DNA of 20,789 nt from Alistipes onderdonkii (GCA_963621925.1 CAVFGF010000020.1:1-20789); one strand, 5' to 3'. Numbered from the stretch's first letter, positions 1 through 20,408 are shown. Numbers and translations are program-made. Notes: a model not told the origin generated them from the letters alone.

Positions 1-55
1 ATCACTTACATACGCCCTCAGCAGCAGGTGCTTCGGGCTGGTTCTGAATAGTTAC
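1..55 (-). repeat. Window-truncated second copy of the MITE-like element (complete copy at 18068..18243), in inverted orientation
   Basis: Positions 1..55 match the reverse complement of 18068..18122 at 51/55 positions (mismatches at window positions 5, 8, 14, 27). Similarity stops exactly at the GTAAC terminus (pos 55) and runs off the left edge of the window. Confidence 0.85.
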
Positions 56-309
56 GCTTTTTCCTTCTCCAGAGCCTCCCGCACGGCACAGGCCAGCTGG
101 TCTCCGCAGGAGGTGGACTTGAAGCCACAGTGGATTCCCTTACATTTTTCCTCGATCTGCTCCACCGTCATGCCGTCCACCAGGCGGGAAACCGCCTGCA
201 GGTTGCCATTGCAGCCGCCGGTATAGACGACGTTCGTTACGACACCGTCGTTGATGTCGAACTGGATTTGCGTGGAACAGGTTCCTTTTGTCTTATATGT
301 GTAGTGCAT
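52..309 (-). CDS. Small TSCPD-domain protein (TIGR03905-like 4-Cys family), 85 aa
   Basis: ATG start preceded by AAAGGAGA. Motifs GGCNGN and TSCGDQLA are typical of the stand-alone TSCPD family. The stop codon TAA (52..54) lies inside the terminal GTAAC of the repeat at 1..55. Confidence 0.85.
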   Translation of the reverse strand: MHYTYKTKGTCSTQIQFDINDGVVTNVVYTGGCNGNLQAVSRLVDGMTVEQIEEKCKGIHCGFKSTSCGDQLACAVREALEKEKA

Positions 310-495: not shown

Positions 496-3027
496 TTACT
501 GGATACCGGTTACTTTATAATCCTTGTCCTCAACAGCTTTCTTCAGCACATCGTCCGCCACCTCTGCGTTCAGCGTAACTACCGCGGTTCCTGCCTCATG
601 GCTTACCTCCGCTGCTTCTACGCCTGCGATGGCTTCCAGGGTTTTCTTTACTGTTGCCTCACAGTGTCCGCACATCATTCCTTCGATCTTCATCGTCTTT
701 GTCATCGTTGTTTCCTCCTTTTGGAAATCGGCTTTTGCCTTGATTTTTTTATCTTTGCTTGCGTCGTGCATTTTGAAAAGATTCAGACGCAGAGCATTCG
801 TTACCACACAGAAGCTGGAGAGGCTCATCGCCGCTGCACCGAACATCGGATTCAGCTTCCAGCCAAACAGCGGGATCCAGACTCCTGCTGCCAGCGGGAT
901 GCCGATAATGTTGTAGAAAAAGGCCCAGAACAGGTTTTCATGGATATTCCGCAAGGTCGCGCGGCTCAGGCGAATCGCTGCCGGCACGTCGCTTAGGCGG
1001 CTCTTCATCAGCACCACATCCGCGGCGTCGATGGCGATATCCGTACCGGCTCCGATGGCGATGCCCATATCCGCCCGCGTCAAGGCCGGAGCGTCGTTGA
1101 TGCCATCGCCTACCATCGCTACTTTACCCTTCTTTTTCAGGCTGCGAATGACGCTCTCCTTACCCTCCGGCAAAACACCGGCAATGACCTCGTCCACACC
1201 GGCCTGACGGCCGATGGCTTTGGCAGTGCGCTCATTGTCTCCGGTCAGCATCACTACGTGAATACCCATACCCTGCAGCTCGCGGACTGCCCGGGGGCTG
1301 TCCTCCTTGATGACATCGGCTACCGCAATAATACCGATGAGCTTGCCGTCTTTTGCGAAGAACAGCGGAGTCTTGCCCTCCTCCGCAAGGGTTTCCGCCT
1401 GCTTTCGGACAGTCTCTGTGATTTCCGCCGTCTCGCTGATATATTTCAGGTTGCCGCCGGTCAGGACTGCGCCGTCCAGCTTTCCGGTCAGGCCACCGCC
1501 CGGTACCGCCTGAAAGTCTGCCACTTCCAGAGAATCGTCTGCGCCGCGCTCCTTGCCGGTCTCCAGGATGGCTCTGGCCAGCGGATGCTCGCTCTTTTTC
1601 TCCAATGCATAAGCCAGCTTCAGAAGCTCTGCCTCCTCGACGCCCTCCGCCGGAAGGATGTCGGTGGTCTTCGGCTCGCCGCTGGTGATGGTTCCGGTCT
1701 TATCCAGGGCTACGATCTGGGTCTTCCCTGTAGCCTCCAGGGATGCTGCGGTCTTGAACATGATTCCGTTTTTCGCGCCCATGCCATTTCCTACCATGAT
1801 GGCTACGGGCGTCGCCAGACCCAGGGCGCAGGGGCAGCTGATAACCAGCACGGAGATACCGCGTGCCAGGGCAAAGCCTACGTTCTCGCCCGCCAGCAGC
1901 CACACGATGATGGTCACGACTGCGATGCTGATAACCGCCGGTACGAAGACGCCGGATACCCGATCCGCGATCTTCGCAATGGGCGCTTTCGTGGCCGCCG
2001 CGTCGCTGACCATCTGGATGATCTGGGACAATGTGGTATCCTCGCCCACGCGGGTGGCCTCGCAGCGGATGAAACCGGACTGGTTCAGGGTAGCCGCGGA
2101 GACCGCGTCGCCCACATTTTTATCCACCGGGATACTCTCGCCGGTCAGGGCGGACTCGTTCACTGCGCTATTACCCTCCAGAACGATACCGTCCACGGGT
2201 ATATTTTCACCGGGTCTGACGACGAAGATATCGCCCTTTCGAACCTGGCTGATGGGAACTTCTACTTCTGCGCCGTCCCGCACCAGAACCGCGGTCTTCG
2301 GAGCCAGCTTCATCAATCCCTTCAAAGCATCCGTCGTCTTGCCCTTGGAACGAGCCTCCAGCATCTTGCCCAGCGTAATGAGGGTCAGGATCATCGCGGC
2401 CGACTCAAAATAGAACTCATGCATATAGGCCATGACGGCATCCATATCGAGATTGACCTGGGCGACAGTCATCGCAAACAGCGCATAAGTGCTGTAGCCA
2501 AAGGATGCCGCCGATCCCAGAGCCACCAGGGTGTCCATATTCGGCGCTCTGTGCAACAACCCCTTGAAGCCATTGATAAAGAATTTCTGGTTGATGACCA
2601 TGACAATGACCGTCAGCAAAAGCTGCGCCAGTCCCATGGCCACATGATTTCCCTCCATGAAGCCCGGTACCGGCCAGTTCCACATCATATGGCCCATGGA
2701 TAGATACATCAGCGGCGCCAGGAAGATCAGCGACGCGATCAGTCTTCTTCGAATCTTCGGGGTCTCGGTGTCCTTCAGGAAATCGTCATCGGCTGCAGCG
2801 GGCGCTTTCGCACCGCCCTTCTCCGCGCCTTTTTCCGACGCTCCGTAGCCTGCGGCCTCCACCGCCGCGATGACGGCGGACGGTTCCGCAGTTCCTTCTA
2901 CGCCCATGGAGTTCGTTAAAAGGCTGACCGAGCAGGCGGTGACGCCCGGTACTTTATTCACCGCTTTTTCTACGCGGGCGCTGCAGGCTGCGCAGCTCAT
3001 GCCCGTTACGTTGTATTGCTTCATCAT
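496..3027 (-). CDS. copA: Copper-translocating P1B-type ATPase CopA with N-terminal and C-terminal heavy-metal-associated (HMA) domains, 843 aa
   Basis: N-terminal [14 protein letters not shown]. Transmembrane CPC motif [11 protein letters not shown]. Phosphorylation site DKTGTIT. Hinge GDGINDAP. C-terminal second [23 protein letters not shown] lies 6 nt upstream of the ATG. Confidence 0.97.
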
Positions 3028-3112
3028 CTATGTCTCCTCTTTTCTGCCGCCGTGATTTTCCTGCCTTTTTCCGGAAAATGGACGGACAGGCTTTTTCGTT
3101 CTTGTCTCCCGG

Positions 3113-3424
3113 TTACCGCATCAGCTTCTGCAGTACGGTTACCAGTTCGTCTATCGTCTCATCCTTGCCTTCCCGGATATCCTCCGCCACACAGGTGCGG
3201 ATGTGGTTGGCAAGCAGAACCTTATTGAAGCTGTTCAGCGCCGCGTTAATGGCTGACACCTGCACCAGGATATCCGTACAATAGCAATCAGTCTCCACCA
3301 TCCTGCGAACTCCCCGCACCTGCCCCTCGATCCGGCTCAGACGGTTCAGCAGATCCTTGTATTCCTTTTCCGTGCGCTCTTTTGTCTTATGGCCGCAGCA
3401 GCAACATTCTTTCTTTTCTTCCAT
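3113..3424 (-). CDS. csoR: CsoR-family copper-sensing transcriptional repressor, 103 aa
   Basis: DUF156/CsoR helical-bundle sequence LNRLSRIEGQVRGVRRM. C...H...C ligand pattern (DCYC ... HIRTC). N-terminal ECCCCGH cluster. Located immediately upstream of copA on the same strand. Confidence 0.93.
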   Translation of the reverse strand: MEEKKECCCCGHKTKERTEKEYKDLLNRLSRIEGQVRGVRRMVETDCYCTDILVQVSAINAALNSFNKVLLANHIRTCVAEDIREGKDETIDELVTVLQKLMR

Positions 3425-3456
3425 CGTTTTTCCTCTTCTTTCTGTGTCTCGCGCTT

Positions 3457-3485
3457 ATTATATACCCCCTTAGGGTATTTTGCAA
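3457..3485 (-). promoter_or_regulatory. csoR-copA promoter with an embedded CsoR-type operator
   Basis: Minus strand: TTGCAA (3480..3485), 17-nt spacer, TATAAT (3457..3462). The spacer holds the inverted repeat ATACCC-N5-GGGTAT (3462..3478), which resembles the known TACCC..GGGTA CsoR boxes. Confidence 0.65.
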
Positions 3486-3565
3486 GTCCAAATTTGGCGG
3501 ATATGCCACACCGACGAAATGCGAAGCATTTTGGAGGTTGGTTCTGAGCAGTTACCTATTTCGCA

Positions 3566-3597
3566 TAAAAAAAACAACCGTATGCTTTCATACGATT
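3566..3597 (-). terminator. Rho-independent terminator downstream of the SRP RNA
   Basis: Minus strand AATCGTATG-AAAG-CATACGGTT (9-bp stem, one G-U pair) followed by GTTTTTTTT. Confidence 0.7.
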
Positions 3598-3619
3598 GCT
3601 TTGTCTGTTCTTATTTTAA

Positions 3620-3890
3620 ATCCGCGCGTTCTGCTTTGAACCATGAAGCTGCACCGTTACCTCTGTAGCCGGCTCGGCTCAGGCGACCTCGCGGCACACA
3701 AGAGATTCTGCTTAGAGCTGCTCCATTCCTGACCTGACTCGATTCACAGATTCCTGTTGCGCAAGACCCAAGCGTCTATGCTGCTTGCAAAGGGCTGCAT
3801 ACAGTTCATAAAGTCCGAGGCAGAACATCACCCCTGCTGTAGCGGATTGCAGGTACAGGGAGCCGCTGATTCCCCGGCTGCGCGGAAGCT
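3620..3890 (-). ncRNA. ffs: Signal recognition particle RNA, large Bacillus type with Alu domain (~264 nt mature)
   Basis: The minus strand contains GTCAGGTCAGGAATGGAGCAGC (the conserved domain IV motif), GGGTCTTGCGCAA, GTGCCGCGAGGTCGCCTGAGCCGAGC and the Alu-domain stretch GCGGCTCCCTGTACCTGCAATCCGCT. The closing helix is CCGCGC (3880..3885) / GCGCGG (3622..3627). It sits directly downstream of tadA, as in B. subtilis (tadA-scr). Confidence 0.9.
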
Positions 3891-3930
3891 TTATGACTTT
3901 TTCTGGATCGTCTTTTGGGCGATCTTTTTC

Positions 3931-3959
3931 AGTATATCTTTAAACCTTACTTTTGTCAA
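3931..3959 (-). promoter_or_regulatory. Strong candidate promoter for the SRP RNA precursor, overlapping the tadA 3' end
   Basis: Minus strand TTGACA (3954..3959), 17-nt spacer, TATACT (3931..3936). It lies about 40 nt upstream of the first SRP helix. Confidence 0.6.
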
Positions 3960-4464
3960 CGATTTCCGAGGATTCTGACATCTCACTCGATGCTTTTTTC
4001 TGCTTTTGCTTCTCTGTCCGAAGCCTTCTGAAAAAATTACTCAGCATCGTGCTGCATTCCTCCTCCAGTACGCCCCGCTCCACGTCTACCTGATGGTTGA
4101 ATTCGGACATTTCCAGAAGATTCAGGATCGAGCCGGCGCAGCCTGCCTTCGGGTTCATGGCCCCGATGACCACCCGGCCCATTCTCGCCTGCACGATCGC
4201 ACCGGCGCACATCTGACAGGGCTCGAGGGTAATATACATCGTACAGTCCTCAAGCCTCCAGTCACCGGTCTTTTTGCTGGCCTTTCGGATGGCATTCAGC
4301 TCTGCATGGGACAGGGTGTTTTTATCGGTATTTCTCCGGTTATAGCCCCGGGCAATGATCCGGTCGTTCTGAACGATGACGCAGCCGATCGGCACCTCCA
4401 GAAGAGCCTCCGCCTTCTTCGCCTGCCGCAAAGCCTCCTTCATATATTTTTCATCTGCCGTCAT
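3940..4464 (-). CDS. tadA: tRNA-specific adenosine(34) deaminase, 174 aa
   Basis: CDA-fold zinc motifs HAELNAI and PCQMCAGAI. 4-nt ATGA overlap with the upstream rsmA. Confidence 0.93.
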   Translation of the reverse strand: MTADEKYMKEALRQAKKAEALLEVPIGCVIVQNDRIIARGYNRRNTDKNTLSHAELNAIRKASKKTGDWRLEDCTMYITLEPCQMCAGAIVQARMGRVVIGAMNPKAGCAGSILNLLEMSEFNHQVDVERGVLEEECSTMLSNFFRRLRTEKQKQKKASSEMSESSEIVDKSKV

Positions 4465-5366
4465 AGGGACTTTGCCTCTTTTCTTTCCGGCAGTTTTTCC
4501 AGCACCCGATTGGACAGCTCTGCAAACTGCTCCAGAGTCAGGGTCTCCCCGCGAACAGCCGGCGGAAGTCCCATCTCCTCCAGCACCTCTGTGGTCATTT
4601 CCTTGGGGATATGCAGCTCCGGCGCATTGCCGAGGCCGTTGACCAGGGTTTTTCTGCGTTGGTTGAAAGAGGCTCGGATGATCTGAAACATCAGCTTTTC
4701 ATCCTCTGCCTGCACCGGCACCTCGCTGTGACGGGTCAGGCGAATCACCGCCGAGCCTACCCGGGGTCTTGGCATAAAGCAGTTCGGCGGTACATTCGCC
4801 ACCAGCTCCGGCTTCGCGTAATACTGCACCGCCAGGGACAGGGCGCCGTAATCCTTGGAGCCCGGGCCGGTCTTCATCCGGTCAGCCACTTCTTTTTGCA
4901 CCATAATCGTAATGCTTTCCACCGGCACATGATTTTCGAAAAGACCCATGATAATCGGCGTCGTTATATAGTAAGGCAGATTTGCCACCACTTTGATGGG
5001 CTTTCCTGCGTTTTTCTCCTCGGCAAGTTTACATAAGTCTACCTTCAGGACATCCTCATGAATGACCGTCACATTGTCGTAGGCGCTTAAGGTATCCTCC
5101 AGAATCGGAATCAGCGCATCGTCGATCTCGATGGCCGCCACCTCTCTCGCGGACGCCGCCAGATACTGGGTCAGGGTACCGATACCCGGGCCGATCTCCA
5201 CGACAAAATCATCCTCGGTGATCTCGGCCGAGCGAATGATCTTGCCCAGCACATGCTCGTCGATCAGAAAGTTCTGGCCGTACTTTTTCTGGAATATAAA
5301 TTTATATTTATTTAAAATTTCGATGGTATTCTTGGGATTTCCCAGGGTGGGAACGGGTCTGCTCAT
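4461..5366 (-). CDS. rsmA: 16S rRNA (adenine1518/1519-N6)-dimethyltransferase, 301 aa
   Basis: KKYGQNFLIDEHVL and the SAM-binding motif VEIGPGIGTLT. KsgA-like length and C-terminal domain. Confidence 0.95.
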   Translation of the reverse strand: MSRPVPTLGNPKNTIEILNKYKFIFQKKYGQNFLIDEHVLGKIIRSAEITEDDFVVEIGPGIGTLTQYLAASAREVAAIEIDDALIPILEDTLSAYDNVTVIHEDVLKVDLCKLAEEKNAGKPIKVVANLPYYITTPIIMGLFENHVPVESITIMVQKEVADRMKTGPGSKDYGALSLAVQYYAKPELVANVPPNCFMPRPRVGSAVIRLTRHSEVPVQAEDEKLMFQIIRASFNQRRKTLVNGLGNAPELHIPKEMTTEVLEEMGLPPAVRGETLTLEQFAELSNRVLEKLPERKEAKSL

Positions 5367-10163: not shown

Positions 10164-10167
10164 TCTC

Positions 10168-10590
10168 CTATTCCTTTCCCAAGATTAATTTTAGCTGTCG
10201 GCTTCTTCGAAGCGTACTTACCGGATTCTGCCTCGCGGCATACTCCTGTTCGCCGATTTCCAGGCCGCCCAGCAGAGGGCTGTATCCCTGATAGCTTACG
10301 GTAATTTTCCCTGCTGATACCTCGACGCTACTTTCCGTCACCTGCAAAAGATAGAGCCGCCCGTCTACGAGACCCGCCGCCTCCGTTCGAAGGGAACTCT
10401 CCAGATGCGCGTCCGTCTCATATTTCCTTGCCGCACCCTTCCCTGCCAGCTCTGCCGCACAGGAGGCCAGCACACTCCGGTCATGCCAATATAGCCCCAG
10501 ACACAGCATCACAAAGCAGATCAGGAGCAAAAAAGGCAACACAATAGAAGCCTCCACTGTTACGCTTCCCCTTTTCCAATTTTTTTTCAT
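10168..10590 (-). CDS. TadE-like pseudopilin, 140 aa
   Basis: The internal ATG at 10590 gives MKKNWKRG/SVTVEASIVLPFLLL, which is a TadE N-terminal motif with G-x4-E. It has an ATGA overlap with the peptidase stop. The longer track ORF (to 10956) overlaps the peptidase gene out of frame. Confidence 0.75.
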   Translation of the reverse strand: MKKNWKRGSVTVEASIVLPFLLLICFVMLCLGLYWHDRSVLASCAAELAGKGAARKYETDAHLESSLRTEAAGLVDGRLYLLQVTESSVEVSAGKITVSYQGYSPLLGGLEIGEQEYAARQNPVSTLRRSRQLKLILGKE

Positions 10591-16879: not shown

Positions 16880-17835
16880 CTTTTTCCCTCTGCCTTTGCC
16901 AATTGTTCAAGTCCGTCTGCCGCGGACAAATCCAGCTTCTGCGTCCGCTCCAATACGGCCTCGAGTCCCAGCTGCCGCATACTCTCCTCGTATTGCCTGA
17001 CCTTGGCTTCGGCTCTCTCATCCCGCGCAACAGGCATATAGATACTCTGACAATCCTCCAAAAGCTCATACCAGCCATCTGCTGCCTCGCTCAAATCCAG
17101 AAGCACCACCTCGTAGCGGCTCTCCTCTTCCAGAAGCGCCAGCAGCCTTTTCCAATCCTTTCGTGTCACGCTTTCATACTCAACGGGAGAGCGAAGCGGC
17201 GGAATATAATCCAGCTCTCCCATCGAACGAATCAGCCCCTCCAGCTTCCATCCGAAAGCCGGCTTCCCCTGCTTTACAAAATACAAAAGCTCCGACAGAC
17301 TCCAGCCCTCCTCCGAAGGATACAGACTTTCAAAGCCGGAATATGCCTCCAGATTCAGGTACAATGTTCTCTTTTTTTTCGCCAGCTCCTTCCCAAGCGT
17401 CAGTGCGAAATCCGTCTTACCGCTTCTTCCCACCGGCGAATAAAGACCGATGCGCTGCAATGCGCCGGTGCGCAGCACCGTACCGGAGGACACTTTCGCC
17501 TGCTCGGCATAGAAGTTCATCGCCTGCTGTAAAATCCGCGAACAGGACTGATACTTATAAAGCACCTCCCCTTCTCTCTCCGAACCGGAGCGATACTCTT
17601 CTTCCGCCAATAAAATGACACTTCCGTATTCTTCATTCTTCGGTAATTCCTCTGATAGTTCCTCTGACAGCAGCAGAATATCTATCGGATGCTCCTTCGT
17701 ATAGGCGGAAAGCTCCGCACAGTCGGTAAATCCATGGACTGACAGCATAGAAGCCTGCCTGCGGTTTGCGAATTCCGTAAATCGCAACACATACTCCCGT
17801 TCCCTGCTGCAGACCGCTATCTGCCTTTCTCTCAT
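16864..17835 (-). CDS. CpaE/TadZ-like protein: receiver-like N-domain plus ParA/MinD-like ATPase domain with a deviant P-loop, 323 aa
   Basis: P-loop-like IGLYSPVGRSGKTDFALTLG. N-terminal ~110 aa with receiver-like alternation (IAVCSRE...IDILLLSEE). Located directly upstream of cpaF. Confidence 0.8.
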   Translation of the reverse strand: MRERQIAVCSREREYVLRFTEFANRRQASMLSVHGFTDCAELSAYTKEHPIDILLLSEELSEELPKNEEYGSVILLAEEEYRSGSEREGEVLYKYQSCSRILQQAMNFYAEQAKVSSGTVLRTGALQRIGLYSPVGRSGKTDFALTLGKELAKKKRTLYLNLEAYSGFESLYPSEEGWSLSELLYFVKQGKPAFGWKLEGLIRSMGELDYIPPLRSPVEYESVTRKDWKRLLALLEEESRYEVVLLDLSEAADGWYELLEDCQSIYMPVARDERAEAKVRQYEESMRQLGLEAVLERTQKLDLSAADGLEQLAKAEGKRWCGP

Positions 17836-17838
17836 GTC

Positions 17839-17961
17839 CTAAATCCCGGAATACAGCAGCACACCGGTCGCAGCACTCAGACAAAGCTCCACCGCCAAAA
17901 ATGCTGCTGCAATCTCAAAAACCCGGGACCACTCCCCTTCTCTTTTCTCTGTTACTATCAA
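17839..17961 (-). CDS. Possible 40-aa membrane peptide, first cistron of the Tad operon (TTG start)
   Basis: The frame TTG ATA GTA ... ATT TAG encodes (M)IVTEKREGEWSRVFEIAAAFLAVELCLSAATGVLLYSGI. GGAAGGAGG lies 12 nt upstream. Its stop codon is 3 nt from the cpaE-like ATG, which has no well-spaced SD of its own. It is below the ORF-track size cut-off. Confidence 0.3.
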   Translation of the reverse strand: MIVTEKREGEWSRVFEIAAAFLAVELCLSAATGVLLYSGI

Positions 17962-18030
17962 ATTCTTACAGTTCCTCCTTCCGCTTCTTTTTCTTTCTGG
18001 AATTTTCGTTTGATCTAAACCTGAGACAGT

Positions 18031-18051
18031 ATCGGCAGTTCCTCTGCCGAT
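18031..18051. other. Perfect 8-bp stem-loop in the Tad operon leader region
   Basis: ATCGGCAG-TTCCT-CTGCCGAT. It lies between the MITE-like element and the first Tad cistron. Confidence 0.5.
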
Positions 18052-18067
18052 CTTTTGTAAGAAAATT

Positions 18068-18243
18068 GTAACTATTCAGAACCAGCCCGAAGCACTTGCT
18101 GCTGAGGGTGTATGAAAATGATTCAACAATGCAAAATCCCATCGGCGAAGCCGATTTTCATGGATTTTGCATCGTAACTGTTGCAAAGCATCCGTGAGGA
18201 ATTGCCAGTGGCAAGTCCTTAGGTGAAGGTACTGAACAGTTAC
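18068..18243 (+). mobile_element. 176-bp non-autonomous MITE-like element with terminal inverted repeats and an 8-bp target-site duplication
   Basis: The termini are GTAACTATTCAGAACC (18068..18083) and the reverse complement of 18228..18243, GTAACTGTTCAGTACC (14/16 match). Identical direct repeats AGAAAATT abut both ends (18060..18067 and 18244..18251). There is no conserved ORF and the interior is highly self-complementary. A second copy lies at 1..55. Confidence 0.7.
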
Positions 18244-18370
18244 AGAAAATTATGTAAACAAAGTATATCCCGCAGCCTCTCCTTTGTCTATTGGAAGATT
18301 TTCACAAAATTTTCCATGCAGTTCACCTCCTATATCGCTCCAATGCCGCAGAAAATAAGGATTTCTGATA

Positions 18371-18410
18371 TACAAAAAGAGCAGAAATATCCATAGAATA
18401 TTTCTGCTCT
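18371..18410 (-). terminator. metG rho-independent terminator
   Basis: Perfect 13-bp stem AGAGCAGAAATAT (18378..18390) / ATATTTCTGCTCT (18398..18410) with a 7-nt loop, followed on the minus strand by TTTTTGT. It lies about 35 nt after the metG stop. Confidence 0.8.
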
Positions 18411-18443
18411 TTCCATATTTTTACAATTTATAGCATCGGCGTA

Positions 18444-20408
18444 TTAACAGATCTCCGCGCCTGCCGGCATCTCCTTCTCCGGCGTCATCAGAGCCAGATT
18501 GCCCTCTGCGTCCTCGGCACAAAGAAGCATTCCCTCCGAAAGGATCCCTGCCAGCTTCGCAGGCTTCAGGTTTACGACCACCATAACCTTCTTGCCGACC
18601 ATCTCCTCCGGTGTATAATGCGCCTTGATTCCGGACACGATCTGCTTAACCTGACTTCCGATACGAACCTGTGAACACAGAAGCTTCTTCGACTTCTTGA
18701 CCGCCTCGCAGGCAATGATTTCGCCTACCTGGAACTGCAGCTTCTCGAAATCCTCAAAGGTAATCTCTGCCTTGGGCTCGATATCGATGACCTCAGCCGT
18801 CTCCTCCTTCGTTTCCTCCGGTTCAGCCTGCGCCTCGGCTCTCTTTGCCTCGACCTTCTCCAGAACCTCCTTGACATCCAGACGTGCAAACAGGATCTCC
18901 GGCTTGTCCGTTACCTTATTGCCGGACTGATAGAGGCCAAACATATTCATAACCTCCAGGGAACGCTTTCTGGCGCCCAGCTGTGCCAGGATCTTCTCGG
19001 CAGTCTCCGGCATGAACGGCTCTAAGAGGCTCGCTCCGATGCTGATGCTCTCCACCAGGTTGTAGAGCACCGTCGCCAGACGATCCTTCTTGCTCTCGTC
19101 CTTCGCCAGAGCCCAGGGCATCGTCTCGTCGATGTATTTATTGCAGCGCTTGAAGAGATTGAAGATCTCCGTGATAGCATCTGCCACCCGCAGCTCATCC
19201 ATTTTTGCCGTCGCCTTCTCTGCCGCCTGAACTGCCGTCTCCCGAAGCTCGCGGTCTACCGGCTCCAGTACGCCTGCGTTGTTTACGACACCGTCGAAGT
19301 ACTTATTGGACATGGATACGGTACGGTTTACCAGATTACCCAGGGTGTTTGCCAGATCGGAGTTCATTCGTTCCACCATCAGCTCCCAGCTAATCACACC
19401 GTCGTTGTCAAAGGGCATCTCATGCAATACGAAATAACGCACTGCGTCTACGCCAAACATCTCTACCAGCTCGTCCGCATACAGCACATTTCCCTTGGAC
19501 TTGCTCATCTTTCCGTCACCCTGCAAAAGCCACGGATGGCCGAATACCTGCTTCGGCAGCGGCAGATCGAGAGCCATCAGGAAGATCGGCCAATAGATCG
19601 TATGGAAACGGATGATATCCTTACCGATCAGGTGCAGATCCGCCGGCCAGTTCTTCTTGAATAAATCGCTCGATTCTCCGTCACACGCATAGCCGATGCC
19701 GGTAATATAGTTCGTCAGCGCATCCAGCCATACATAAACCACATGCTTCGGATCGAAGTCAACCGGAATTCCCCATTTAAAGGAGGTACGGGATACGCAC
19801 AGATCCTGCAGACCCGGAAGCAGGAAATTGTTCATCATCTCATTTTTTCTGGATACCGGCTGAATGAATTCCGGATGCTTGTTAATATGGTCGATCAAGC
19901 GATCCGCATATTTACTCATACGGAAGAAATAAGCCTCCTCCTTTGCCGGCTGCACCTCACGGCCGCAGTCCGGACACTTGCCGTCTACCAGCTGTGACTG
20001 GGTCCAGAAGGACTCACAGGGCGTACAATACATACCCTCGTAAGCGCCCTTATAGATATCTCCCTGATCATAGAGCTTCTTGAAAATCTTCTGTACCTGC
20101 TTCTCATGATAATCATCGGTGGTTCGGATAAATTTATCGTAGGAAGTGTTCATCAGATCCCAGATGCGCTTGATCTCGGTGGATACGTTGTCTACGAATT
20201 CCTTCGGCGTCACGCCTGCCTCCTCGGCCTTCAGCTCGATCTTCTGACCGTGCTCATCGGTACCGGTCTGGAAAAATACATCATATCCCTGAAATCTCCG
20301 ATAACGGGCAATGGCATCTGCCAATACAATTTCGTAGGTATTGCCGATATGGGGCTTACCGGAAGTATAGGCAATGGCCGTGGTCATATAAAATTTTTTC
20401 TTTTCCAT
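18444..20408 (-). CDS. metG: Methionine--tRNA ligase with a C-terminal tRNA-binding (Trbp111/EMAP-like) domain, 654 aa
   Basis: HIGH motif (KPHIGNTYE). KMSKS (DGKMSKSKGN). Zinc knuckle CTPCESF...CPDCGRE. C-terminal ITFEDFEKLQFQVGEIIACEAV...KPAKLAGILSEGMLLCA. AGAGGA lies 6 nt upstream of the ATG. Confidence 0.97.
   Translation of the reverse strand: MEKKKFYMTTAIAYTSGKPHIGNTYEIVLADAIARYRRFQGYDVFFQTGTDEHGQKIELKAEEAGVTPKEFVDNVSTEIKRIWDLMNTSYDKFIRTTDDYHEKQVQKIFKKLYDQGDIYKGAYEGMYCTPCESFWTQSQLVDGKCPDCGREVQPAKEEAYFFRMSKYADRLIDHINKHPEFIQPVSRKNEMMNNFLLPGLQDLCVSRTSFKWGIPVDFDPKHVVYVWLDALTNYITGIGYACDGESSDLFKKNWPADLHLIGKDIIRFHTIYWPIFLMALDLPLPKQVFGHPWLLQGDGKMSKSKGNVLYADELVEMFGVDAVRYFVLHEMPFDNDGVISWELMVERMNSDLANTLGNLVNRTVSMSNKYFDGVVNNAGVLEPVDRELRETAVQAAEKATAKMDELRVADAITEIFNLFKRCNKYIDETMPWALAKDESKKDRLATVLYNLVESISIGASLLEPFMPETAEKILAQLGARKRSLEVMNMFGLYQSGNKVTDKPEILFARLDVKEVLEKVEAKRAEAQAEPEETKEETAEVIDIEPKAEITFEDFEKLQFQVGEIIACEAVKKSKKLLCSQVRIGSQVKQIVSGIKAHYTPEEMVGKKVMVVVNLKPAKLAGILSEGMLLCAEDAEGNLALMTPEKEMPAGAEIC

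Follow-up and report, generated by a model that had tools for sequence, protein, structure and literature searches.

A 176-bp element between metG and a Tad operon as a very probable MITE of the IS66 family (ISBst12 group)

Bacterial MITEs, among them Correia/NEMIS of Neisseria, RUP of Streptococcus pneumoniae and MITEAba12 of Acinetobacter, are small, non-coding, multi-copy elements that are bounded by terminal inverted repeats (TIRs) and a target duplication, usually lie between genes, are polymorphic among strains and are sometimes co-transcribed with their neighbours. The presumed parent of RUP is IS630, and the duplication made by these MITEs is TA or 9 bp. The element described here occupies 176 bp (18068-18243) between metG and a Tad operon in the window, that is, the whole 20,789-nucleotide stretch of DNA that was analysed (Table 1). 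It shares with Correia/NEMIS, RUP and MITEAba12 the small non-coding TIR form, the target duplication, the multiple copies, the mostly intergenic location and the strain polymorphism, but its duplication is 8 bp and its presumed parent is of the IS66/ISBst12 type. Unlike the other bacterial MITEs, it belongs to a modular family whose hosts are gut Clostridia and Negativicutes.

The IS66 family is marked by an 8-bp duplication together with ends that start GTAA (PMC11946415), and ISDge4 of Deinococcus geothermalis, a single-ORF member of its ISBst12 group, has the ends GTGACTACTCAGCA and GTAACTGCTCAGCA and an 8-bp direct repeat (PMC12898284). Both hallmarks are present in the 176-bp element, with its GTAACT... 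ends and its 8-bp duplication. ISDge4 and the ISGka4/ISGst1-type elements on plasmids pHTA426 and pGS18 likewise have GTAACT..TCAG repeats and duplicate 8 bp of their target; however, IS of this group are 1.6-1.8 kb long and encode a transposase, whereas the 176-bp element has no transposase gene and is not self-mobile, and beyond its first 16-18 nt its interior is unrelated to the end of any IS retrieved. Judged from sequence, the 176 bp are very probably a non-autonomous MITE that arose by deletion from a single-ORF IS of the IS66 family (ISBst12 group). The element would then be an ordinary type of mobile element derived, by its ends and its duplication, from a known IS family; the abundance of its relatives, their presence in phages and their activity within the species are worth recording and will not surprise a specialist.

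Architecture of the element and its presumed parent

The region reads AGAAAATT, GTAACTATTCAG ... CTGAACAGTTAC, AGAAAATT. The left terminus (18068-18079) is GTAACTATTCAG and the right terminus (18232-18243) is CTGAACAGTTAC, the reverse complement of which, GTAACTGTTCAG, agrees with the left at 11/12 positions, or at 14/16 when both are extended to 16-mers. Both outer ends have the form GTAACT(A/G)TTCAG, and the two flanking copies of AGAAAATT are identical (8/8). The preliminary description of this DNA had named these inverted and direct repeats as the marks of a MITE-like insertion, and they recur exactly as it gave them. With up to two mismatches allowed, the window has four occurrences of the terminal 15-mer GTAACTRTTCAGWAC where 0.03 would be expected, which excludes a chance origin; the fourth match is a fragment at 3541-3555.

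Table 1. Coordinates of the element, its relatives and the neighbouring features in the window
Feature	Position	Strand	Detail
176-bp MITE (very probable)	18068..18243	+	Non-autonomous, without conserved ORF; missing from L013-L018 and L023
Left terminal inverted repeat	18068..18083	+	GTAACTATTCAGAACC; 16/16 with the end of a 1714-bp IS66-family IS in L173-L177
Right terminal inverted repeat	18228..18243	-	GTAACTGTTCAGTACC; 15/16 with the TIR of a 1826-bp Lachnospiraceae IS
Target-site duplication, Tad-gene-proximal copy	18060..18067	.	AGAAAATT; single 8-mer in relatives
Target-site duplication, promoter-proximal copy	18244..18251	.	AGAAAATT
Internal two-tier hairpin	18129..18172	.	11-bp stem around 6-bp stem ATCGGC-GAA-GCCGAT; kept in 131/132-bp copies
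Nested 70-bp mini-element	18174..18243	+	Own termini GTAACTGTT...AACAGTTAC; solo in L013-L016
Second copy, same subfamily, cut by the window edge	1..55	-	131 bp on L001; empty sites in L178-L185
Target duplication of second copy	56..63	.	GAAAAAGC on minus strand
One-ended 64-bp fragment of 142-bp sister subfamily	3492..3555	-	Comparison with subfamily consensus
40-aa ORF, first called gene of Tad cluster	17839..17961	-	TTG start, AGGAGG ribosome-binding site
Predicted sigma-70-type Tad promoter	18262..18290	-	TAGACA-17-TATACT, 10/12 consensus match
Native leader hairpin	18031..18051	-	ATCGGCAG...CTGCCGAT; downstream of insertion, conserved in all relatives
metG terminator hairpin	18376..18412	-	Upstream of the promoter in the Tad sense

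The element is of a size within the MITE range and carries no transposase gene. Its sole ORF, 21 codons at 18112-18177, reads ATG TAA in the second copy and is so destroyed there, as had already been pointed out. The three pairings reported earlier are all perfect: 11 bp between 18129-18139 and 18162-18172, 6 bp between 18141-18146 and 18150-18155, and 9 bp between 18174-18182 and 18235-18243; folded as single-stranded DNA, the whole element has a z-score of -6.7. The 9-bp pairing is the terminal repeat of a nested 70-bp mini-element, and because this mini-element moves alone in related strains, the 176-bp element can be described as a 106-bp left part joined to a complete 70-bp mini-element.

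The preliminary description had proposed a search for a transposase gene flanked by the same termini, and such elements of IS66 type were found in Geobacillus, Bacillus and Lachnospiraceae. They include an IS66-like element of 1635 bp on the Geobacillus plasmid pHTA426 (ends GTAACTATTCAGCC... and GTATCTATTCAGCC..., duplication AACTCGTC), one of 1613 bp on pGS18 (ends GTAACTATTCAGCC, duplication AAAAGAAC) and one of 1630 bp on a Bacillus thuringiensis plasmid (ends GTAACTACTCAGCTT, duplication AATTTATC). The terminus of the pHTA426 element is identical to that of the 176-bp element at 12/12 positions, and its 485-aa protein matches the Pfam family DDE_Tnp_IS66 (PF03050, 1.9e-64) as well as zf-IS66. 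A profile built from these transposases recovered relatives on viral contigs, and nearly all of those with recognisable ends, L158 being the exception, have GTAACT..TCAG-type termini and a perfect 8-bp duplication. Further IS66-type elements with the same ends lie on L160-L163. The gut-derived IS copy on L162/L163 (GTAACTATTCAGAACCCCGCC; element at 2720-4432) is a pseudogene, its reading frame being interrupted by a TAA inside the conserved motif NSSNS(S)KPPSSDG. For its transposase, 6167 homologues were found at E <= 1e-30. The copy at 2642-4437 of L161 is also damaged, the N-terminal part being out of frame with the catalytic part.

Two homologues are intact. P0184, recorded at NCBI as "IS66 family transposase [Lachnospiraceae bacterium]", has 491 aa and lies in a 1826-bp IS with perfect 18-bp ends (GTAACTGTTCAGAACCCC) that was seen in three different contexts, one of which shows a duplication at 8/8 positions. 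The IS that contains P0104 is 1714 bp long and has the ends GTAACTATTCAGAACCC. The left end of the 176-bp element (GTAACTATTCAGAACC) matches the P0104 IS at 16/16 positions and its right end (GTAACTGTTCAGTACC) matches the P0184 IS at 15/16, the agreement of its ends with the latter IS being 15-16/16 overall. From these end matches, the termini appear to assign the 176-bp element to the ISBst12 group as its parent, and this assignment is well supported. Between contig L165 and contigs L167/L170, on which the 1826-bp IS occupies 1171-2996, the left flanks of that IS are identical, the right flanks differ and there is no duplication, a pattern that points either to a rearrangement mediated by the IS or to a chimeric assembly.

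A search of the window, of the fetched loci of this species and of MITE-bearing loci totalling about 1.2 Mb revealed no gene for an IS66-type transposase. Among the matches listed for a synthetic consensus IS66 protein there were just proteobacterial canonical IS66 elements, and none in the local loci. Pairs of termini 1.4-2.7 kb apart among the metagenome matches listed were considered as full-length parent IS and rejected, as they enclose ordinary genes or are chance partners. The ends to be looked for in an intact ISBst12-type partner IS are GTAACT(A/G)TTCAGAACC.

Could the parent instead be an IS of the IS6/IS26 family? Elements of that family also make duplications of 8 bp, and the inner terminus at 18174-18189 (GTAACTGTTGCAAAGC) resembles the IS6-family end GGTTCTGTTGCAAAGT; this terminus contains the 11-nt run CTGTTGCAAAG, which I take to be common to IS257/IS1216-type ends, the ends of the family presumably being of the type GG(C/T)(A/T)CTGTTGCAAA. 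However, this run is confined to the one inner terminus and absent from the wider family, whereas the outer ends, those that bound the duplication, are GTAACT(A/G)TTCAG and match the IS66-family elements tested over 12-18 nt; IS6-family ends begin with GG, not GTAA. An IS6/IS26 parent is therefore very unlikely. Two other identities were considered and rejected: the core sites do not fit an integron attC site, and REP/RAYT elements leave no target duplication.

With an IS66-type parent, the course of events would begin with an element that encodes nothing and is mobilised in trans. A DDE_Tnp_IS66 transposase would recognise the GTAACT(A/G)TTCAG termini and cut the two strands of an A+T-rich target, here presumably AGAAAATT, 8 bp apart, and repair of the staggered cuts would leave the flanking 8-bp duplication. 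I infer this mobilisation by an IS66-type enzyme, as I do the neutral-to-mild effect on the Tad operon that is discussed below. The single-ORF transposases of the IS66 family (ISBst12 group) have been little studied, and the MITE family may also supply natural substrates for them.

Empty sites and further copies in the species

Many contigs encode P0001, a homologue that is 98% identical to the first Tad protein of the window. Ten contigs were fetched, and the alignment of the metG-Tad spacer comprised six that span the insertion point (L013-L018) and L023 from a sister species. In all six contigs of near-identical strains (L013-L018), the spacer is 184 bp shorter than in the window (176 + 8), and one AATTTTCT marks the junction at the very point at which two copies of it enclose the element in the window; these contigs read ...TTTGT(C/T)TACA(C/T)AATTTTCTTACAAAAG... 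across the site. L023, at 79% protein identity, likewise lacks the element. Empty sites with a single target copy in relatives had been suggested earlier as something to look for, and they show that the 176 bp are a derived insertion, which arose with duplication of an 8-bp target, and not a conserved leader or RNA gene. As both close strains and the sister species have an unoccupied site, the insertion in this lineage is recent.

The same evidence bears on the idea of a structured RNA native to the metG-Tad spacer, whether an sRNA or a cis-regulatory leader, in which the pairing of the termini would be an RNA fold. Its secondary structure is predicted to be strong on both strands. Yet the orthologous spacer lacks the sequence in six close strains and the sister species, copies stand in unrelated contexts and in either orientation, the flanks are duplicated and there is no match in Rfam at gathering or E-value thresholds, so that this idea is extremely unlikely. 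The Rfam 15 search gave no match to the MITE in the window at the gathering score, nothing relevant for 17850-18450 at E up to 10 (the best E-values for the spacer, 0.17-0.45, being to unrelated miRNA and sRNA models) and nothing relevant for three other MITE-bearing loci.

A repeat finder reported inverted arms at 1-61 and 18062-18122 with 90% identity. The second copy at 1-55 that had been described before is indeed inverted and 93% identical (51/55), and its full length, seen elsewhere, is 131 bp, not 176. It is complete on contig L001 (MAG GCA_963639965.1), where 5014-5154 covers the insertion region, and relative to the 176-bp element it has lost an internal block of about 43 bp between two GT dinucleotides. 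Its empty site was found in eight loci. The second copy interrupts the final codon of a TSCPD gene of 85 aa. At this site the relatives have GAAAAAGCC TAA, followed 3 nt on by a convergent crp-like gene, and the window reads GAAAAAGC followed directly by GTAACT.... Because the MITE's own terminal G+TAA re-creates the alanine codon and the stop (GCC TAA becomes GCG TAA), the TSCPD protein is unaltered. The insertion separates the two convergent genes that were formerly 3 nt apart.

Relatives also carry copies that are missing from the window. A contig of 102 kb in which neither window site is occupied has a 132-bp copy in the gmk-holB spacer and a 70-bp mini-element within the Tad cluster. The solo mini-element lies at 17649-17718 in L013-L016 (8433-8502 in L015 and 8110-8179 in L016) and is 94.5% identical to 18174-18243 of the window, which itself is an empty site for it at about 10164-10180, the size difference of 77 being 69 + 8. 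In these relatives, the solo mini-element alters the C-terminus of a 127-aa Tad-cluster protein from LILGKE* to EIVTVAKHP* and adds about 70 nt ahead of an FHA-domain gene. Four copy sites are therefore known in the species, all in unrelated contexts (metG-Tad, TSCPD-crp, gmk-holB and inside the Tad cluster), and all four are polymorphic among near-identical strains, which makes them a handy strain marker. Because relatives carry copies that the window lacks, the MITE family is active within this species.

The preliminary description had also suggested counting further copies and inspecting their flanks; those found, at TSCPD-crp, at gmk-holB and inside the Tad cluster, each sit in a different context and so rule out a segmental duplication. 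The two window copies are inverted and 18 kb apart, as would be expected of remnants of a segmental duplication or inversion that bracket the 18-kb segment 56-18067. Nevertheless, similarity ends at the termini, with unrelated flanks beyond, each copy has its own, different 8-bp duplication, and relatives without both copies keep the same gene order; such an origin has next to no likelihood. A composite transposon or an 18-kb inversion was likewise rejected, given the unchanged gene order in strains without both copies. The reading of the 176 bp as a MITE is accordingly upheld by the empty sites, the copies, the target duplications and the transposase-bearing elements with the same ends. The observations that had been named as speaking against it did not turn up: the sequence is not conserved at orthologous sites, has no Rfam match and occurs in unrelated flanks with recurrent duplications.

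The one-ended fragment at 3492-3555 has its orthologue at 1524-1587 of L001. Its neighbours are, on one side, an SRP RNA gene (minus strand, 3622-3885; 172.7 bits in Rfam) and, on the other, the promoter/operator of a csoR-copA copper operon.

Position in the Tad leader

Pfam places metG at 18447-20408 and, below 17835, a Tad-like cluster with a T2SSE ATPase, T2SSF, TadE-like, DUF5702 and FHA proteins, both on the minus strand. Directly upstream of the first large Tad gene is the 40-aa ORF, known from gene calls on related contigs. The predicted Tad promoter is the sole promoter-like site in 17800-18470, and conservation of its hexamers extends to the relatives as well as to L023 (TGGACA...TATACT). 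Ten nucleotides separate its -10 box from the duplicated target, with the insertion downstream. From this spacing, the insertion point would be roughly at +5 to +12 of the presumed Tad transcript, with the promoter intact. Because the insertion lies so close behind the -10 box of the only predicted promoter, the Tad leader is probably lengthened by 184 nt, from about 110 to about 294 nt. The metG terminator was called by the scan on the plus strand; it is a near-perfect palindrome with T runs flanking it on both strands.

On the Tad-sense strand, the element has no predicted site that resembles a terminator or a promoter, and because of this it is most likely co-transcribed and of little or moderate consequence for the Tad operon. 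It would be transcribed as the first 184 nt or so of a longer 5' leader and fold as a self-contained hairpin closed by its termini: the predicted RNA fold of the leader has -93.5 kcal/mol and a z-score of -4.5, the element closes on itself via its termini, and the native leader hairpin (AUCGGCAG...CUGCCGAU) is unchanged with the insertion. On the suggestion in the preliminary description that the element may have rewired Tad transcription, the sequence speaks only in part. The element does lie behind the predicted promoter and ahead of the remaining leader, which leaves the promoter intact and would add a structured 5' segment.

The insertion might still be functionally consequential, in that the structured 5' block or displaced leader signals alter expression of the Tad pilus in this strain, whether by attenuation, by a change in mRNA stability or by a new outward promoter. 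Its place just behind the -10 box and upstream of both the conserved leader hairpin and the ribosome-binding site of the first ORF, its strong predicted fold and its polymorphism among strains are what one would expect in that case. Against it, neither a terminator nor a promoter is predicted inside on the Tad-sense strand, the element is predicted to fold alone and leave the native hairpin as it was, and a preference for A+T-rich targets by itself predicts MITEs in A+T-rich intergenic DNA. I consider a consequential insertion unlikely, though less so than any other alternative discussed here, and prefer read-through with little or modest effect. The strains with and without the element form a natural pair, with and without a structured 184-nt extension of the 5' leader, in which pilus expression could be tested.

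A wider family in gut bacteria and phages

A pattern scan of genomes found the same termini in Blautia, Lachnospira, a Lachnospiraceae MAG, Oscillospiraceae, Ruminococcus sp. CAG:382 and Selenomonadales, where they bound palindromic units of 33-142 bp, and a scan of metagenomes gave at least 120 matches, mostly on human-gut contigs. A form of 140-143 bp dominates among the metagenome matches listed, and 41 distinct copies of this 142-bp subfamily align with a mean column identity of 91%. The first 16-20 nt of its termini are identical to those of the 176-bp element and it makes the same 8-bp A+T-rich duplication, but its interior is unrelated; the interior of the 176-bp subfamily was seen, among the sequences compared here, in contigs of this species only. 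Size forms that share the same ends measure 27-33, 63, 70, 81, 104, 131, 142 and 176 bp. One-ended copies are common, the fragment at 3492-3555 of the window being one.

A census of target duplications covered, among the matches listed, 65 distinct two-terminus insertions from gut metagenomes, genomes and phage contigs. Their 8-bp flanks agree at 8/8 positions in 29 and at 7/8 in 20, so that 49/65 (75%) reach at least 7/8, against 1.2% of flanks that were randomly re-paired; about one quarter of these 65 members have no recognisable duplication. A+T make up 85.5% of the duplicated targets, with A prevailing towards the left and T towards the right, a pattern that AGAAAATT fits.

Copies of the 142-bp subfamily also occur on IMG/VR viral contigs (L025-L029), and three phage-contig copies have flanks that agree at 8/8, 8/8 and 7/8 positions. 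In the phage collection the 142-bp form matched just two unannotated faecal phage records, MT837934 and MT835491. Because the subfamily is found on viral contigs and faecal phages, it is plausible that phages have helped to spread it among Clostridia and Negativicutes. Perfect 8-bp duplications accompany 142-bp copies both on viral contigs and in uncultured human-faecal phages.

A BLAST search of a plasmid collection gave no real match to the 176-bp and 81-bp elements and none to the 142-bp form, and no annotated match appeared in the plasmid or phage collections. A literature search with the terminal sequence returned primers only. No published IS66-derived MITE or Lachnospiraceae MITE was found in a search whose coverage was incomplete and did not include ISfinder, and no published name was found for the 142-bp subfamily; the family is very abundant in gut bacteria, without a published description found. 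Looked up as exact proteins, neither metG of the window nor its first Tad gene had an entry, and csoR led to a short contig only. A previously unexplained palindromic block is now defined as a mobile element and given a parent family, and it can be masked or annotated in genomes of gut Firmicutes.

A broader proposal would unite all GTAACTRTTCAG-ended elements into one large, active and horizontally spreading gut MITE superfamily in human and animal gut, with hosts among Lachnospiraceae, Oscillospiraceae, Ruminococcus, Negativicutes and phage contigs, whose members have been co-opted as transcript modules (5'-leader hairpins, gene-end terminators and suppliers of stop codons), and of which the Tad insertion changes pilus expression. 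Taken as a whole, this is a speculative and improbable combination; if it were true, the insertion at about +5 of the Tad leader could lead to strain-level differences in adhesion.

In the alignment of the 41 copies of the 142-bp subfamily, columns of about 20-46 form a local hairpin (CCTCCAAAATGC / GCATTTTGGAGG). A paired change in its arms, C to T and G to A, is seen in three copies (L027, L056 and L132), whereas most copies instead carry GCATTTCGTCGG, which breaks the pairing. A 2071-bp segment with MITE-type termini on L112 (2987-5057) encloses a 409-aa Y-family-polymerase-like ORF and a 194-aa flavin-reductase-like ORF; it contains no transposase and has no target duplication, and may be a cargo-carrying derivative or two unrelated MITE ends. 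Finally, contigs L001 and L024 and many of L030-L149 end inside or beside a MITE copy, and because so many short-read contigs end in this way, the MITE family is a frequent cause of assembly breaks in gut metagenomes.
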